DNA from: an uncultured Thermoplasmatales archaeon
Lineage (GTDB): Archaea; Thermoplasmatota; SW-10-69-26
Direction of reading: 5' to 3'
Assembly: GCA_964464425.1 (NCBI GenBank)
Contig: CAYXGD010000001.1
Coordinates: 1 to 40,820, forward strand
DNA length: 40,820 nucleotides
Shown here piece after piece: positions 12,844-38,980 of the stretch. The notes under the pieces are model-generated. The model made no database searches. It was not told where the DNA came from and worked only from the letters and a program-made list of their open reading frames with translations. Each line of letters opens with the position of its first letter. Position 1 is the first letter of the stretch. A program made the position numbers and the translations under genes.

Positions 12844-12916
12844 CAGGTCACGGGTCAGGCTCTGGCGAGCCTCAAGGTTTCGGGGTCCACCGGTCCACGA
12901 GCACGGAGCGGGGGAT

Positions 12917-13026
12917 GCCGGCCGAACCCGGTGGGTCGGCGGTGTGGTTCAACCTCTCGCGAGGCCCTTGTCGTAGCATTGTCGGACCTCGCGATCGAAC
13001 AGGGGGTTCAGATCCCTCTCTGAGAA
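12917..13026. repeat. Decayed copy of the hairpin-repeat family (see 16745-17145 and 38005-38520)
   Basis: Contains GCCGAACC…GGTTC (12921-12950), CCTCTCGCGAGG/GACCTCGCGA, GGTTCAGATCC (13005-13015) and CTCTCTGAGAAC (13015-13026). These are the same stem and junction words as the two intact arrays, but the pairing is eroded. Confidence 0.5.
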
Positions 13027-13040
13027 CGATACGGTTGGAA

Positions 13041-13123
13041 CGCGGGGCGGGGGATTCGAACCCCCGGGTGCAAAGCACACAGAGTTAGCAACCCTGCGCC
13101 TTACCAGGCTAGGCAAGCCCCGC
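13041..13123 (-). tRNA. tRNA-Ser (anticodon GCU), long variable arm, no encoded CCA
   Basis: The minus strand reads GCGGGGC-TT-GCCT…AGGC-G-CAGGG-TTGCTAA-CTCTG-TGTGCTTTGCACCC-GGGGG-TTCGAAT-CCCCC-GCCCCGC-G. It has a 7-bp acceptor stem, a GGTTCGAATCC T-arm, a GTGC/GCAC variable-arm hairpin and anticodon GCT at loop positions 34-36. Confidence 0.9.
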
Positions 13124-16699: not shown

Positions 16700-16717
16700 G
16701 AGACCTAGCCACCGGCT

Positions 16718-16733
16718 GGAGCTATAGCGTTCC
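16718..16733 (-). promoter_or_regulatory. TATA-like box (minus-strand GGAACGCTATAGCTCC) upstream of the LTD gene
   Basis: Centred about 26 nt upstream of the ATG at 16699. It lies between the hairpin array and the gene. Confidence 0.5.
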
Positions 16734-16744
16734 TCGACGAACGG

Positions 16745-17145
16745 CGACCGGTCTGGCCGTTGGGATGGGAGCGTGGGCGCGAAGGTCGCCGCTTCGCTGT
16801 GGTCCCGGCAACCGGCGTGGTTGGAGGTCGACCTGGGGCGGTTGGTGTGGTCGACCTCCAGATTCGCCCGAACCGGGGGGTCTCTGCAGGTTCGGGCGCT
16901 CTGAACCTCGCCCCTATCCGGTGGTCCAGGCAGGTGGTGTGGTCGACCTCCAGATCCACCCGGATCGGAGATCCGGGTTCTCTGAACCTCGCCGTTATGC
17001 TGTGGTCCCGGCGAGCGGTGTGGTTGGAGACCGGTTCTGGGTGGTTGGTGGACCGGTCTCCAGATCTGCCCGAACCGTCCGGTCGGTGTCGGTTCGGGCG
17101 CTCTGAACCTCGCCCCTATCCGGTGGTCTCGGCGAGGTTCAGATC
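16745..17145. repeat. Hairpin-repeat array 1: about 8 consecutive GC-rich stem-loops (REP/BIME- or MITE-like family)
   Basis: Perfect stems were read from the sequence. They are 16822-16833/16849-16860 (12 bp), 16865-16874/16889-16898 (10 bp) and 16958-16966/16970-16978 (9 bp, loop GGA). Further stems are 17025-17035/17052-17062 (11 bp), 17068-17076/17091-17099 (9 bp) and 17102-17114/17131-17143 (13 bp). Junction words CAGATC and CTCTGA recur. Loops share GGTTGGTGTGG-like and CTATCCGG words. Exact or near-exact blocks are shared with 38005-38520. Confidence 0.85.
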
Positions 17146-17684
17146 ACTTCGCCTTCGAGGAGCTTCTCGATCTTGTACGGGAGAAGGTTCCGGTTGATCG
17201 GGGTGACCTCGAGGATCCTGATGTCGTCCCGGCGCCGGATGTCCTGGAGCAACGGGTTCCTGGACTTCTTGTGGAGGGTCATGATCATGGACTTGTCGGA
17301 GTCCAGCGCGGCCTTGACCGCGTCGCAGAAGGCTGGGCTTTCCATCTCCATCTTGCCCACCTCGTCGACGACGATGACCTCGGCCTCCTCGATGGCGCGC
17401 AGGATGGCGCTCACACCGATGTCCTCGAGCACATCGAGGTCGACCCCGTACTTGCCGACGCGGACCTCGCTGTCGAGGTCGACGTGGGCCAGCGTGTCGG
17501 TCTCCTTGGTCAGCCAGTCCTGGATATGGAACCCCTTGCGTTGGCCGGCTTCCTCGATGGCTTCGGTCACCATCCCGCCGACGATGGTCTCCTTGCCTTC
17601 CAGTTTCTCGATGATCTTGAGGATGGTCTGGGTCTTGCCCACAGAGGGCATGCCGGTGATGCCGATCTTGGCTGCGTGGGCCAT
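17139..17684 (-). CDS. Nucleoside-triphosphatase THEP1 family (P-loop NTPase)
   Basis: The Walker A motif is GITGMPSVGKTQ, the Walker B-like motif is VIVVDEVGKME, and the length (181 aa) is typical of archaeal THEP1. Its last two codons and the TGA stop lie inside the 3' arm of hairpin 17131-17143. Confidence 0.85.
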   Translation of the reverse strand: MAHAAKIGITGMPSVGKTQTILKIIEKLEGKETIVGGMVTEAIEEAGQRKGFHIQDWLTKETDTLAHVDLDSEVRVGKYGVDLDVLEDIGVSAILRAIEEAEVIVVDEVGKMEMESPAFCDAVKAALDSDKSMIMTLHKKSRNPLLQDIRRRDDIRILEVTPINRNLLPYKIEKLLEGEVI

Positions 17685-34947: not shown

Positions 34948-35699
34948 CCACCAGCCTCGAGGCGCGGGACGTGACCGTCCGGTTCGGCGGCCTGACCGCC
35001 GTCGACCACGTCGATCTCGACATCCAGCCCGGGGAACTGGTCGCCTTGGTCGGGCCCAACGGCGCCGGGAAGTCCACCCTCTTCAACGCGTTCACCGGGC
35101 ACGTCACCCCCACGACGGGTCAGGTCATCTACGACGGGGACGACGTGACCGACCTCCAGACCCACCAGCGCGCCAGAGCCGGCCTGGTCCGGACCTGGCA
35201 GATAGCTCGTCCCTTCGTGCGGCTGTCCTGCCTCGAGAACGTCCTGGCTGCCGCCCCCGAGAACCCGGGGACGCGCATCCACCGGGCGTTGCTGGGCACC
35301 GGCGACCGGGAGGACATCGAGCTGCGGGCCGAGGAGGTCCTCGAACGGGTGGGCATGGATCACATGCGCGACGAGCTCGCCGGCAAGCTCTCCGGCGGTC
35401 AACGCAAGCTCCTGGAGATCGCCAGAGGGCTCATGTTGGACCCCAAGGTCCTGCTGCTCGACGAGCCCTTCGCCGGGGTCAACCCGACCCTCGCCAACCG
35501 CATCATCGACCTCCTCAAGACGCTCTGGCAGGACGACGGGCTGACCATCTTCCTCGTCGAGCACAACATGGACATCGTGATGGAGCACTGCCCGCGCGTG
35601 GTCGTCATGGCCCAGGGCGAGGTGCTGACCGACGGTACCCCCGACGAGGTCCGTGCCGACCAGCGGGTCATCGAAGCCTACCTGGGAGGGACCATGTGA
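34944..35699 (+). CDS. livG: Branched-chain amino-acid ABC transporter ATP-binding protein (LivG family)
   Basis: The GTG at 34944 overlaps the livM stop (GTGA). It has Walker A GPNGAGKST, the signature LSGGQRKLLEIA, Walker B LLLDEP and an H-loop VEHNM. Confidence 0.9.
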   Translation: MTTSLEARDVTVRFGGLTAVDHVDLDIQPGELVALVGPNGAGKSTLFNAFTGHVTPTTGQVIYDGDDVTDLQTHQRARAGLVRTWQIARPFVRLSCLENVLAAAPENPGTRIHRALLGTGDREDIELRAEEVLERVGMDHMRDELAGKLSGGQRKLLEIARGLMLDPKVLLLDEPFAGVNPTLANRIIDLLKTLWQDDGLTIFLVEHNMDIVMEHCPRVVVMAQGEVLTDGTPDEVRADQRVIEAYLGGTM

Positions 35700-36439
35700 T
35701 GACGCTCGAGGTCACGGGCCTGCGGACCGGGTACGGCAAGCTCGAGATCGTCAAAGGCGTCGATGTCTCGGTCCCCTCCGGCGACCTCGTTGTCATGGTC
35801 GGACCCAACGGGGCCGGGAAGAGCACGGTGCTCAAAGGGATCGCCGGCCTGGTCGAACCGTGGGACGGCCAGGTCCTCGTCGACGGGACCGAGGTCACCC
35901 ACGTCCCAGCCCACGCCAAGGTCCGGTACGGCCTGGCGGTCGTCCCGCAGACCGACAACATCTTCCCACGGTTGACGGTCCGGGAGCACCTGGAGGTCGC
36001 CACCGGCGCTGCCAACCGAGGCAGCCTCGAGGATGCCCTGGAGATGGTCCCCCAGCTCGAGCCCCTCATGGACCGTCGGGCGGGCAAGCTATCCGGCGGT
36101 CAGCGCCAGCTGGTGGCCCTCGGCCGAGCGTTGGTCACGCGTCCCCAGGTCCTGCTCCTGGACGAGCCGACGGCCGGGGTCCAACCTAACGTCGCCCGGG
36201 AGCTGCTCGACCACGTCGTCGAGATCGCCGGGCAAGGCGTCGCCGTCCTCATGGTCGAGCAGAACGCCCGCGAGGCCATGGAGAGGGCCGACCAGGCCGT
36301 CGTTCTCGACCGGGGCGAGGTGGCCTTCCGGGGACCCGGTCCTGACCTCCTCGAGGACCCGGAGGTCGGTCGGCTCTACCTCGGCATGACCCCCGAGGCC
36401 GACGGGCAGGACCCTGGGACCGGAGATCAAGCCACGTAG
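35696..36439 (+). CDS. livF: Branched-chain amino-acid ABC transporter ATP-binding protein (LivF family)
   Basis: Its start overlaps the livG stop (GTGATG). It has Walker A GPNGAGKST, the signature LSGGQRQLVALG, Walker B LLLDEP and VEQN. Confidence 0.9.
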   Translation: MMTLEVTGLRTGYGKLEIVKGVDVSVPSGDLVVMVGPNGAGKSTVLKGIAGLVEPWDGQVLVDGTEVTHVPAHAKVRYGLAVVPQTDNIFPRLTVREHLEVATGAANRGSLEDALEMVPQLEPLMDRRAGKLSGGQRQLVALGRALVTRPQVLLLDEPTAGVQPNVARELLDHVVEIAGQGVAVLMVEQNAREAMERADQAVVLDRGEVAFRGPGPDLLEDPEVGRLYLGMTPEADGQDPGTGDQAT

Positions 36440-36530: not shown

Positions 36531-37910
36531 CTAGGATCCGCCGACCTTGAACGGCTCACCGGTCTGGATCGTGCCGTTGTTGTCGACCTGCCAGAAGGCG
36601 TAGGTTCCGCTGACGACCTCACCCCGGTCGTCCCACTGGAGATCGCTGGCGGCGCCGATCCAATCGATGTCCTGGCCAGCGCTCAGCAGGGTGAAGGCCT
36701 GATCCAGGTCGTGGGTCTGGACCCCCGGCGGGTTGGCGACCCGGCGCATGTGATCCTGCCAGACCGTGGGATCGGTGGAGTCGGCGCTGTGGATCGCCAG
36801 CAGCATGTAGATCGCCGCGTCGTAGCTCTCGGCGGCGAACAGCCCGGGCGCGTGGCCGTACTTCTCCTCGAACTCCTGCTGGAACTCGCCGCTGGCGTTG
36901 GTGCTCCCGGCGGGGGTGGTCCCCTGGAAGCCGCGGAGAGCCGGCTCGCCGTCGGCGTCGTCGCCGACGTTGTCGACGAAGTCCTGGGACTTGACGCCCT
37001 CGCTGAAGTAGACCGGGAACTCGCCCAGCCGACCGTCGTTGAGGAGCCCCGTGTAGATCGGGACGCCGGCCCCTGGGTAGCCGATGAAGACAAGGGCGTC
37101 GAAGTCGCCGGAGGTGGCCTCGCTGGCCTCCGTGTCGAAGGAGGAGGCGTCCTCGTCGTAGAGGATGGTCTTGCCGACGTCGCCCTCGAAGGCATCCTCG
37201 AGCGTGTTGGCGAAGCCCTTGCCGTAGTCGTTGTTGACGGCCAGGATGTTGATGGACTCGCAGCCGTCATCCTGGAGCAACTGGGCCATGGCGCGTCCCT
37301 GCAGGGAGTCCGGCGGGGGCACCCGGTAGAAGAACCCGTTGTTCTCCCGCTCGGTCAGGGTCGGGGACGTGCTGGCCGGGGTGGTCAGCACGATCTCGTT
37401 CTGGACGGCGGTGGGCAGGATGCTACCGGTCACACCGGATGAGGCGGCCCCGACGACGCCGACGACACCCTCCTCGATCAGCCGCTGGAGCTCCTGGGGA
37501 GCAGCCGACGGGTCGGTCTGGGTGTCGCCCTCGATGACCTCGACCGACCGCTGGCCCAGCAGGCCACCGGAGGAGACGTTGTTGGCCTGGTCGGCGGCCA
37601 TGCGGACAGCGCGGGCCATGTCGCCCCCGAAGTCCTGGAGGCCGCCGCTTAGCGGCAGCATGAACCCGAGCGTGACCGTGTCACCGGTCTGCTGGAGCGC
37701 AGCCGGGGCCACTGGGGCCGCTTCGGCGTCCCCTGGAGCCGGGTCCAGGGTAGAGGCAGCGGTCCCTTCCATGGAACCACCCAGCCCCTCACACGTCGTC
37801 ACCCGTTCGCCAGCGCCACCATCTTGGGTGGTGGTGCAACCGGCGAGCCCAACCGTGAGAAGCGCCACGGCCATCATCCAAACAGCATGGTTCCTATCTA
37901 ACACGCCCAT
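36531..37910 (-). CDS. Second ABC transporter substrate-binding lipoprotein (Leu/Ile/Val-binding family)
   Basis: The N-terminus is MGVLDRNHAVWMMAVALLTVGLAGC (lipobox), followed by a Thr/Gly/Ala-rich linker and a type-1 PBP body (VTLGFMLPLSGGLQDFGGDMARAVRMAADQAN…). Confidence 0.85.
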   Translation of the reverse strand: MGVLDRNHAVWMMAVALLTVGLAGCTTTQDGGAGERVTTCEGLGGSMEGTAASTLDPAPGDAEAAPVAPAALQQTGDTVTLGFMLPLSGGLQDFGGDMARAVRMAADQANNVSSGGLLGQRSVEVIEGDTQTDPSAAPQELQRLIEEGVVGVVGAASSGVTGSILPTAVQNEIVLTTPASTSPTLTERENNGFFYRVPPPDSLQGRAMAQLLQDDGCESINILAVNNDYGKGFANTLEDAFEGDVGKTILYDEDASSFDTEASEATSGDFDALVFIGYPGAGVPIYTGLLNDGRLGEFPVYFSEGVKSQDFVDNVGDDADGEPALRGFQGTTPAGSTNASGEFQQEFEEKYGHAPGLFAAESYDAAIYMLLAIHSADSTDPTVWQDHMRRVANPPGVQTHDLDQAFTLLSAGQDIDWIGAASDLQWDDRGEVVSGTYAFWQVDNNGTIQTGEPFKVGGS

Positions 37911-37938
37911 AGGTCAACCCGAGGCGCGAAGCCCCAGG

Positions 37939-37951
37939 CCCCTTCAAAAGC
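37939..37951 (-). promoter_or_regulatory. TATA-like box (minus-strand GCTTTTGAAGGGG)
   Basis: About 36 nt upstream of the ATG at 37910. It separates the gene from hairpin array 2. Confidence 0.4.
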
Positions 37952-38004
37952 ATGTCGAAGCCCCGTGGTCTCCCGCCGATCACGGCGCAGAGCAGCCCAG
38001 GCCA

Positions 38005-38520
38005 GGATCCACCGGGCAGCCAGACCGGCCGCTGTGGTGGGGGTTGATCCGGTAGGATGTGAGGCTGGAGGTCGCCCTGGTGTGGTTGGTGTGGTCGACC
38101 TCCAGAGCCTGTCCGAACCGAGCGGTCGTTGCGGGTTCGGACGCTCTGACGGCCTCTATCCGCGCGGGTGCTTCGGCCGTCAGATCCGCCCGGATCGGAG
38201 ATTCGGGCTCTCTGAACCTCGCCTCTGCGCGGTTGGTGTGGCGAGTTGTGTTGCTGGAGGTCGCCCTGGTGTGGTTGGTGTGGTCGACCTCCAGAGCCTG
38301 TCCGAACCGAGCGGTCGTTGCGGGTTCGGACGCTCTGACGGCCTCTATCCGCGCGGGTGCTTCGGCCGTCAGATCCGCCCGGATCGGAGATCCGGGCTCT
38401 CTGAACCTCGCCTCTGCGCGGTTGGTGTGGCGAGGTTCAGATCCGACCGAACCGAGCTGTGGGTGCCGGTTCGGTCTCTCTGAGCCCCCGCGGTGGTACC
38501 GGTGGCCCAGCGGGGCCTCA
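38005..38520. repeat. Hairpin-repeat array 2: about 12 consecutive stem-loops, same family as 16745-17145
   Basis: Stems read from the sequence include 38065-38077/38093-38105 (12 of 13 pairs), 38111-38119/38134-38142 (9 bp) and 38145-38154/38175-38184 (10 bp). Others are 38188-38196/38200-38208 (9 bp with one G-T), 38400-38411/38430-38441 (12 bp), 38445-38453/38468-38476 (9 bp) and 38486-38491/38510-38515 (6 bp). An exact 23-mer, GGTTGGTGTGGTCGACCTCCAGA, occurs at 38084-38106 and at 16840-16862. Confidence 0.85.
38064..38441. repeat. Tandem direct duplication, period 189 bp, inside array 2
   Basis: 38064-38245 equals 38253-38434 apart from one mismatch that I could find by eye (T at 38203 versus C at 38392). 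Each unit carries five hairpins. The fifth hairpin of copy 1 is truncated at the junction (GCGAG|TTGTGTT). Confidence 0.9.
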
Positions 38521-38787
38521 AAGCCGTCCGACGTCCTCGCAGGAGACGGACTCGACGCCTTGGATCTTGGCGAAGGAATCCTCGAGGCCATCGACCGAGA
38601 TCTCCTCGGTGTCCTCCATGCGGAGGGTCACGTGGATGGCCTTGAGCCCGAAGGCGACGGGCTTGACCTCGGCGCTCTCCCAGGTGACACCCTCCGGGAT
38701 GACGTCCTTGGCTTGCTCTTGGAGGGCGTCCAGGTCGCTCTCGACGCTCTCCGGCATGATCTTGAAGACGGCGATAAGTTCACCCAT
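38518..38787 (-). CDS. Translation elongation factor aEF-1 beta
   Basis: 89 aa: MGELIAVFKIMPESVESDLDALQEQAKDVIPEG…VKPVAFGLKAIHVTLRMEDTE…VESVSCEDVGRL. This is the typical archaeal EF-1beta length and sequence pattern, preceded by its usual Zn-ribbon partner gene. Confidence 0.9.
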   Translation of the reverse strand: MGELIAVFKIMPESVESDLDALQEQAKDVIPEGVTWESAEVKPVAFGLKAIHVTLRMEDTEEISVDGLEDSFAKIQGVESVSCEDVGRL

Positions 38788-38809
38788 GATCGGTCACCAG
38801 TCCCGGGCG

Positions 38810-38980
38810 CTACGGGCCGACGAAGGCGCAGGAGGGGCACTCGTACTCGACGCCCTGGTCGCGGCACTGCGGGCAGCGACCGATGGGCGCATCGGCGCAA
38901 TCGGGGCAAGGGAAGCTGGTGCTGCCCCGGCCGATGAGCCGGACGCCACAGGAGGTACAGGAGTCGGCCTTGAGCTGCAT
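38810..38980 (-). CDS. Small Zn-ribbon protein (four CxxC pairs), the conserved partner upstream of aEF-1 beta
   Basis: Not in the ORF track (56 aa). My translation is MQLKADSCTSCGVRLIGRGSTSFPCPDCADAPIGRCPQCRDQGVEYECPSCAFVGP followed by a stop. The ATG is at 38980 and the TAG at 38810-38812. Confidence 0.7.
   Translation of the reverse strand: MQLKADSCTSCGVRLIGRGSTSFPCPDCADAPIGRCPQCRDQGVEYECPSCAFVGP

Follow-up and report, generated by a model that had tools for sequence, protein, structure and literature searches.

Two spacers in a 40.8-kb window of archaeal DNA (the whole 40,820-nt stretch analyzed) contain arrays of two alternating hairpin types, X and Y, separated by near-invariant linkers (16781-17145 and 38060-38525). 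The family is not catalogued in Rfam and is kept foldable across related lineages, and comparison of its copies gives good support to the view that the stems are maintained complementary. With roughly even confidence, we read these repeats as a lineage-specific, REP/BIME-like family of structured palindromes that sits in gene 3′ trailers and may be kept foldable for a function in the sense RNA. The material comprises three loci from this one 40-kb window and ~140 kb of relatives, whose contigs (L numbers below) were found via the flanking proteins.

The window has a GC content of ~69% and looks like the DNA of a Thermoplasmatota-like halophilic archaeon. The proteins it encodes are acidic archaeal housekeeping proteins (aEF-1beta, an HVO_2753-type zinc-finger protein, a THEP1-type NTPase, RNase HII, and PolX), and the closest NTPase homologues come from halophilic Thermoplasmatota metagenome-assembled genomes (MAGs), e.g., “Thermoplasmatales archaeon SW_10_69_26.” Streptomyces-type intergenic repeats, which the GC content had suggested, were rejected because the aEF-1beta, HVO_2753 zinc-finger, and NTPase matches are those of a halophilic archaeon. 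Exact-protein searches with aEF-1beta and the NTPase found no identical record. Array 1 fills the spacer from the NTPase stop codon to the leaderless-type promoter of a lamin-tail-domain (LTD) gene, and array 2 runs from the aEF-1beta stop codon to the promoter region of a solute-binding-protein gene; all four of these genes lie on the minus strand. At both arrays, the TGA of the upstream gene falls inside the stem of the hairpin that comes last on the plus strand. Long spurious ORFs run over such arrays in high-GC MAGs (e.g., 37965-38483 and 38059-38937). The genes whose 3′ ends adjoin the arrays are as follows.

17139-17684, minus strand: NTPase_1 (THEP1-type) gene, 3′ end adjoining array 1
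38518-38787, minus strand: elongation factor 1-beta (aEF-1beta) gene, 3′ end adjoining array 2

Read on the gene-sense strand, the repeating dimer is GATC-X-GAG(A/C)-Y-GG(A/C), with a length of ~85-90 nt. X hairpins have a stem of 10-13 bp that starts with CTG(A/G)A and ends with T(C/T)CAG around a loop of 15-20 nt; Y hairpins have a stem of 9-10 bp with the core CCGAACC or CCGGATC. Stem classes that look distinct at first sight collapse into these two families, the “GGAG” and “GAACCTCGCC” classes being variants of X and the “CCGAACC” and “CCCGGATC” classes variants of Y. GATC stands before each unit and (G)ATC after it, X and Y occupy opposite ends of the dimer, and the conserved flanks around the hairpins are GATC, CAGAG, and CTCTGA; the dimers have no terminal inverted repeats. 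At a higher level, each array locus holds two copies of a composite unit of ~190-200 nt, X(A)-Y(B)-X(D)-Y(C)-X(D′), in which the right arm of D′ is truncated. Certain loop motifs recur on the sense strand (ACCACAGC, CCAACC, and a UCC triloop), and the loop sequence GGTTGGTGTGG is also present among the family’s hairpins.

Such hairpins are concentrated well beyond chance. There are 22 of them, 21-44 nt long, in the two spacers and one tRNA trailer, with none in coding sequence. Fifteen of the window’s 20 perfect hairpins of at least 9 bp fall within ~830 nt; composition-matched shuffles of the whole window hold a mean of 9.45 such hairpins per 40.8 kb and thus ~0.2 per 830 nt. The pattern CCGAACC..GGTTCGG occurs five times, compared with zero in shuffles. 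A model of the Y hairpin (R1) found no additional copies in the window. In the Rfam search only a tRNA (13041-13123) passed the gathering threshold, and sensitive scans of the arrays gave chance-level matches only (E >1).

The modules of array 1, listed with a strand only where the dimer model assigns one, are as follows.

16781-17145, minus strand (dimer-model orientation): array 1, ~9 hairpin modules
16781-16813: degenerate distal X, GAAGGTCGCC, loop GCTTCGCTGTGGTCCC, then GGCAACC
16822-16860: X hairpin, class A, TGGAGGTCGACC / GGTCGACCTCCA, 12 bp
16865-16898: Y hairpin B1, CGCCCGAACC / GGTTCGGGCG
16900-16954: chimeric X, D-type left arm TCTGAACCTCGCC plus A-type right arm, non-pairing
16958-16978: Y hairpin C1 (the focal hairpin), ACCCGGATC-GGA-GATCCGGGT
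16981-17015: X hairpin D′, TCTGAACCTCGCC, loop, GGCGAG; right arm truncated (17010-17015)
17025-17062: X hairpin A′, TGGAGACCGGT / ACCGGTCTCCA
17068-17099: Y hairpin B2, GCCCGAACCG / CGGTTCGGGC
17102-17143: X hairpin D, TCTGAACCTCGCC / GGCGAGGTTCAGA, 13 bp

The loop and arm of the distal X resemble L062 X1 and the L036 loops, and an arm of hairpin D includes the NTPase stop codon (17139-17141, TGA on the minus strand). Hairpin A′ is nested where part of the D′ right arm is missing, an arrangement repeated at 38211-38245 and in L070. In the chimeric hairpin, the A-type right arm is a 19-mer, GGTGTGGTCGACCTCCAGA, that is identical at four sites, and the counterpart in L070 is intact. Joined as it is from a D-type left arm and an A-type right arm that do not pair, 16900-16954 is, to judge from its two arms, a product of gene conversion.

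Array 2 is built in the same manner.

38060-38525, minus strand: array 2, 12 hairpin modules
38064-38434: tandem duplication, 189 nt x 2, ~95-99% identical, unit X(A)-Y(B)-X(D2)-Y(C)-X(D′)
38111-38142: Y hairpin B3, GTCCGAACC / GGTTCGGAC; duplicate at 38300-38331
38188-38208: Y hairpin C2a, carrying the interior wobble G38193·T38203
38377-38397: Y hairpin C2b, GCCCGGATC-GGA-GATCCGGGC; partner of 16958-16978
38445-38476: Y hairpin B4, GACCGAACCG / CGGTTCGGTC
38479-38522: X13 hairpin, TCTGAGCCCCCGC / GCGGGGCCTCAAA; C·A (U·G on the sense strand) and C·C mismatches

Here D′ (38211-38245) again has a truncated right arm (38240-38245). X13 contains the aEF-1beta stop codon (38518-38520), and L063 has a simpler hairpin in its place. 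Because of the 189-nt tandem duplication, the copies at this locus come as nonindependent pairs.

The initial annotation had singled out a 43-nt block, and its description holds: 16951-16993 differs from 38370-38412 at exactly two positions, A16958/G38377 and T16978/C38397, which pair with each other. This pair closes the base of the 9-bp hairpin, whose triloop is GGA, and is A-T in C1 and G-C in C2b. With 41 of 43 positions identical, the block is far more alike between the two loci than the 82-nt unit segments (65-76%). C1 aligns with a B-type hairpin of L070 that has the same A-T closing pair, so the A-T/G-C difference is one case of a position that varies throughout the family. All of the stem classes listed along with the block were also found in the sequence: GCCCGAACC/GGTTCGGGC at 16866 and 17068, GTCCGAACC/GGTTCGGAC at 38111 and 38300, GACCGAACC/GGTTCGGTC at 38445, GGAGGTCGACC at 16823, and GGAGACCGGT at 17026. 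The assertion that every change is matched on the opposite arm went too far, given the non-pairing chimeric hairpin, the truncated right arms, and C·T, C·C, and A·C mismatches. The plus-strand wobbles G38193·T38203, T17067·G17100, and T38110·G38143 do exist, but they are not the only imperfections, since C38075·T38095, C38480·A38521, and C38485·C38516 are mismatches. The first of these, in X7, is duplicated at 38264/38284 in X10; the second, in X13, is a G·U pair on the minus strand.

Across the family, complementarity was retained while the paired bases changed. The 11 distinct Y hairpins, drawn from three lineages, had 99 of 99 cells paired, with six of nine pairs changed on both sides and one pair position showing all four Watson-Crick combinations; none of 500 shuffles reached this covariation, and controls with a slid register collapsed. 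Among nine X-Y dimers, 97% of cells were paired and 12 of 22 pairs were changed on both sides, again reached by 0 of 500 shuffles. For the X stems, pairs were counted by script from the outer anchor, as the MAFFT alignment of the X hairpins was out of structural register, and 112 of 117 cells were Watson-Crick. Array 1 is colinear, module by module, with the array of L070. RNAalifold on the two gave 75 shared pairs, of which 11 were compensated, 2 were changed on one side, and 0 were broken, at identities of 85% in linkers, 80% in stems, and 53% in loops. Many of the stem differences are C-G to G-C flips without a wobble intermediate. Covariation thus stands above the duplication background, shuffles never reaching it and pairs being compensated between lineages. 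That no pair is broken despite 53% loop identity, and that the linkers are the most conserved part, argues for a constraint at the locus and not only at copying. The earlier proposal of selection on the stems stands insofar as complementarity is kept far above both chance and the duplication background; selection is not the sole possible preserver of palindromes, however, because gene conversion is visible here and template switching possible.

At the NTPase locus, four contigs of relatives carry the same hairpin grammar directly 3′ of the NTPase stop codon: L062 (NTPase 95% identical), L070/L071 (LTD 77%), and L072 (LTD 59%), with arrays that range from 3 to ~10 modules across lineages. L062 has one X hairpin with an inverted loop, a point against the sense-strand reading preferred below. 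In relatives with 85-86% NTPase identity, the NTPase-LTD spacer is 80-90 nt long and has no hairpins. Likewise, aEF-1beta relatives without an array (81-91% identity) have a short spacer with at most one hairpin, in which the promoter-proximal part is conserved. Array-free spacers are those of L038, L042, L063, L064, and L066. Contigs of relatives break within arrays, and the arrays in this way disrupt metagenome assembly. Altogether, the family occurs at four locus types (NTPase, aEF-1beta, tRNA-Ser, and tRNA-Leu), where its presence and length are polymorphic, at a density of three loci per 40.8 kb in the window and one to two loci per 7-20 kb in relatives.

The third locus of the window lies behind a tRNA gene. 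We detected it with a model of the dimer (R2) that is strand-specific and was trained solely on the NTPase- and aEF-1beta-linked dimers; its match there, 12913-12999 on the minus strand, scored 26.5 bits (E ~2.5e-4).

12902-13040, minus strand: third, degenerate unit, behind tRNA-Ser (13041-13123, minus strand)

This unit consists of an X hairpin (12959-12992) and a Y hairpin (12920-12954), the latter with two G·U pairs on the sense strand; at 12902-12916, the tRNA-Ser 3′ end recurs as a direct repeat that has decayed. R2 also matched the tRNA-Ser trailers in L072, L038-40, and L042-45 and the tRNA-Leu trailer in L036. The tRNA-linked units are flanked by direct repeats of 15-27 nt of the tRNA 3′ end and include an inverted copy of the T arm, with an oligo-T terminator only after the last repeat. 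These direct repeats look more like the outcome of recombination or integration than of an RNA function, and the duplicated tRNA 3′ ends suggest a possible targeting mechanism.

As to the strand on which the hairpins might fold, the initial annotation saw a weak hint of folding on the plus strand, as RNA or as single-stranded DNA and thus antisense to the flanking genes, a proposal that fails on the wobble tally, the fold z-scores, the composition of the loops, and the co-orientation with genes. The 24 hairpins contain 263 Watson-Crick pairs, 5 plus-strand G·T pairs, 1 plus-strand A·C pair, and 2 other mismatches. The excess of G·T over A·C points toward the plus strand, but 5 against 1 is not significant (one-sided binomial p ~0.11). 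Four of the five G·T pairs are terminal, and the same positions are C·T mismatched in other copies; the sole interior one, G38193·T38203, goes back to one C-to-T change, confined to a single copy of the near-identical 189-nt duplication. On the minus strand, X13 has one interior G·U pair and the Y hairpin of the tRNA-linked unit has two, three in all. Absolute folding energy is lower on the plus strand, which follows from its richness in G and U (its shuffles are lower too); z-scores for the two arrays, although far beyond shuffles on both strands, favor the minus strand (−8.2 and −12.4 compared with −6.7 and −8.7). Loops read on the plus strand are 43% G, 31% T, and 6.5% A, so that those of the sense strand, with 43% C and 31% A, are unable to mispair there. 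Both R1 and R2 place all window copies in a single orientation, and with R2 every unit is co-oriented with its upstream gene at four of four locus types, including units outside the training set, which leaves the antisense idea unsupported; we consider it very improbable. If the elements act as RNA, then they most likely do so on the sense strand, as the 3′ trailer of the upstream gene.

The reading that we prefer, of structured repeats in 3′ trailers that serve the sense RNA, starts from the placement of the dimers, which lie directly 3′ of a gene and in its orientation, with the first stem overlapping the stop codon (NTPase and aEF-1beta) or following the tRNA. Runs of four or more T or A (TTTT/AAAA) are absent from both arrays, and an intrinsic terminator (hairpin plus U-tract) was rejected on this ground. 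Since no T-run terminator precedes the arrays, they would be transcribed as the 3′ trailer of the upstream gene. Their hairpins could then act in the sense RNA like bacterial REP elements, by blocking 3′-to-5′ decay, or could cause transcription to pause or be insulated before the next promoter, and a stop codon embedded in a stem might modulate translation termination. With any such role, purifying selection would act on pairing locus by locus. The arrays would grow and spread at the DNA level, through slippage or unequal exchange between the direct and inverted repeats, through gene conversion, and, rarely, by seeding the 3′ ends of further genes; dynamics of this kind are visible in the 189-nt near-identical duplication and in the patches that are identical between loci. 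Archaeal termination and mRNA decay are not known to depend on stem-loops. Functional RNA helices usually carry more wobbles, and pairing as nearly perfect on both strands as it is here (263 Watson-Crick pairs compared with 6 G·T or A·C) is fitted at least as well by DNA hairpins or cruciforms.

The main rival to a sense-RNA function is accordingly one of mobile DNA, in which a trans-acting transposase or recombinase recognizes the folded single-stranded DNA of nonautonomous elements of the PATE/REPIN kind, or of miniature integrative elements, and stems are kept because only foldable copies propagate. We think this possible but give it clearly less than an even chance, and it is just as doubtful that, as part of the same account, the arrays arose by repeated insertion beside the GATC that ends the previous unit. 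The scatter over at least four locus types with presence and length polymorphic between lineages, the near absence of G·U from stems that pair on both strands, and the conserved linkers (GATC and CAGAG) beside every hairpin, which resemble cleavage or guide sites, would all suit mobile elements. So would the tRNA-linked units, bracketed by tRNA 3′-end repeats and with an inverted T-arm copy and oligo-T only after the last repeat, the nesting of A′ within the right arm of D, and the contigs of relatives that end inside arrays. Yet there is no transposase or integrase among the window’s 38 ORFs scanned (nor a match to Y1_Tnp), and no IS605-type transposon in the window or in the retrieved loci of relatives. 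The dimers also lack terminal inverted repeats and GTAG/CGTC tags. The copies are diverged, as recently transposed elements would not be: stems differ from one copy to its neighbor, yet lineages keep the modules in the same order, and changes are compensated, which implies constraint in situ. Exact-pattern scans yielded chance matches only: 35 in GTDB representative genomes (unrelated organisms or coding sequence), 16 in JGI metagenomes, and in IMG/VR either none or chance matches in coding sequence. A second alternative is that no functional constraint exists and that palindromy is regenerated mechanically, through quasipalindrome template switching during replication and through gene conversion between paralogous hairpins. 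Template switching is an established source of mutations that correct imperfect inverted repeats; conversion is visible in the 19-mer at four sites, in the chimera, and in the 41/43 block compared with units of 65-76%; and the many C-G to G-C flips show no wobble intermediate. Conversion has also destroyed a hairpin (16900-16954), however, and so is not inherently structure-preserving, and arm-to-arm templating leaves unexplained why linkers are 85% and loops 53% identical and why loop composition is biased by strand. With 0 of 75 pairs broken between lineages whose loops are near-saturated, we regard this account as improbable, and we hold it equally improbable that the apparent compensatory changes are single mutational events, as it would require.

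On a more speculative reading, the X-Y dimer would be a new archaeal structured element that homes to gene 3′ ends, tRNA genes included, copies the 3′ end of its target on insertion, and persists because the host uses the trailer. We find this rather unlikely as a whole. If it were true, a conserved, modular hairpin string of ~350 nt with C/A-rich loops and fixed GAUC/GAGA linkers could serve as a platform for protein binding or processing, and the inherited unit would be the structure, not the sequence. One locus can be traced through at least four lineages with dozens of compensated stem changes, invariant linkers, and consistent orientation, which makes the family unusually well suited to the question of what preserves such repeats, host RNA function or propagation of folded DNA.

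Several known classes of repeats and RNAs were set against the arrays. A CRISPR array was rejected because the “repeats” differ from one another and are palindromes, with constant parts that are only linkers of 3-6 nt. On visual inspection, hammerhead, C/D-box, and K-turn readings of the linkers were set aside, since UCUGA/UCAGA behaves as a covarying helix (in L062 it is UCUCA/UGAGA), and in-frame read-through ORFs past the TGA were rejected because the stems change nonsynonymously and because the window and L070 have their stops in different modules. Integron attC sites and CALIN share with this family a conservation of structure over sequence, strand-specific recognition of hairpins, and an organization in arrays. 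The arrays here, in contrast, have no R″/R′ cores (RYYYAAC/GTTRRRY), extrahelical bases, or cassette ORFs, and attC was rejected on anatomy: the stems start with TCTGA or CTGGA and are perfect, and hairpins of 21-44 nt follow one another at a distance of 1-5 nt, with no ORF between them. The CsrB/RsmZ sponge RNAs, too, string together hairpins in which stems vary and loop motifs recur, but no promoter or terminator of their own and no Rfam match was found for the arrays, and no cognate RNA-binding protein is known from this lineage.

Two families of extragenic repeats come closer; the literature we searched holds little on structured extragenic repeats in archaea and nothing for uncultured halophilic Thermoplasmatota. 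PATEs and other small mobile repeats of haloarchaea derive from IS200/IS605-type transposons (PMC3119063). Like the dimers described here, PATEs are gene-less, lack terminal inverted repeats, nest in palindromes, and are polymorphic among strains of halophilic archaea; the dimers may also resemble PATEs in having palindromes near both ends and no clear target duplication. PATE copies are near-identical, whereas the dimers are diverged and keep their order at orthologous positions with compensated changes, and at the tRNA-linked units the 3′ end of the target is duplicated. Structured REP/BIME repeats are short, GC-rich palindromes in mosaic arrays with conserved linkers and tandem amplification (PMC2817692, PMC3733652). 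In Enterobacteria and Pseudomonas, as here, they lie in 3′ regions between genes and fall into classes that differ by matched changes in the arms; the same roles are proposed for both, namely mRNA 3′ protection, termination, and supercoiling. Membership in the REP-RAYT system appears to fail on the GTAG/CGTC tag and on alternating orientation: GTAG/CTAC is absent from both arrays, CGTC/GACG is rare and never at the foot of a hairpin, and no RAYT gene was seen in the 40 kb. REP/BIME modules alternate or form inverted pairs, whereas the modules here are all co-oriented; they belong to an archaeal host, they form a dimer of two hairpin types in which stems vary and linkers stay fixed, and their first stem overlaps a stop codon or follows a tRNA.

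We compared gene ends at 17139-17143 and 38518-38522 of the window with those of the related-lineage loci L036 (~4570), L042 (~10546), and L038 (~10546). In array-carrying lineages, the NTPase gene ends in ATC TGA, with the TGA lying inside the X stem, and in array-free lineages, it ends in TAG. The aEF-1beta gene ends in CTT TGA in the window, within X13 (the X hairpin closest to this gene), and in CTC TGA or CTC TAA in relatives. Because the endings of both genes differ between lineages in this way, the hairpin element may have supplied or remodeled the stop codon. At the other border of the arrays, each downstream gene has a promoter-like element ~25 nt 5′ of its ATG (CGAGGAACGCTATAGC at one locus and CGACATGCTTTTGAAGGGG at the other):

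16700-16740, minus strand, promoter-like element of a gene downstream of an array
37885-37960, minus strand, promoter-like element of a gene downstream of an array
L063 1420-1500, corresponding element in a related locus whose spacer is empty of array

The position of these elements suggests leaderless transcripts for the downstream genes. The second element (CGACATGCTTTTGAAGGGG) is kept in L063, and the arrays are therefore confined to the stretch that separates a stop codon from the promoter that follows it.

X-Y units, dimers of an X and a Y hairpin, also lie behind tRNA genes:

12902-13040, minus strand, unit in the window
L072 4009-4140, unit in a relative
L038 14070-14470, same
L045 4869-5230, same
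L036 4700-5100, same

The upstream gene is tRNA-Ser, or tRNA-Leu in L036. Each unit has an inverted T-arm copy (GGGGGATTCGAACCCCC) before it and, after it, the tRNA 3′ end repeated in direct orientation (ATCCCCCGCCCCGCG); this repeat is degenerate in the window and present in up to four copies in L038. At the tRNA-linked loci of L042 and L045, an oligo-T terminator occurs only after the last such repeat. The L072 unit folds into a cloverleaf-like four-way junction (z = −5.8).

Long ORFs (145-292 aa) span the arrays on both strands:

16760-17197, plus strand
37965-38483, plus strand
38059-38937, plus strand
37980-38591, minus strand

These are artifacts of repetitive, high-GC, stop-poor sequence that could pass for genes in MAG annotation. 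Logan contigs of relatives end within or directly beside arrays (end of L062, at 2363; start of L070/L071), which fits modules that are multicopy in those genomes. Elsewhere in the window, a 117-nt direct repeat (35379-35495 vs. 36080-36196, 72% identical) between two adjacent ABC-transporter ATPase genes probably reflects ordinary paralogy of nucleotide-binding domains.

X-hairpin loops carry the G-rich motif GGTTGGTGTGG:

16834-16850, plus strand
17036-17053, plus strand
38078-38094, plus strand
38224-38241, plus strand

More GG runs adjoin it (e.g., GGTGTGGTTGGTGTGG), and the motif is less distinct in L070. In plus-strand ssDNA or RNA, it could rival the hairpin in the K+-rich cytoplasm of a halophile; it resembles the two-tetrad G-quadruplex motif of the thrombin-aptamer type.
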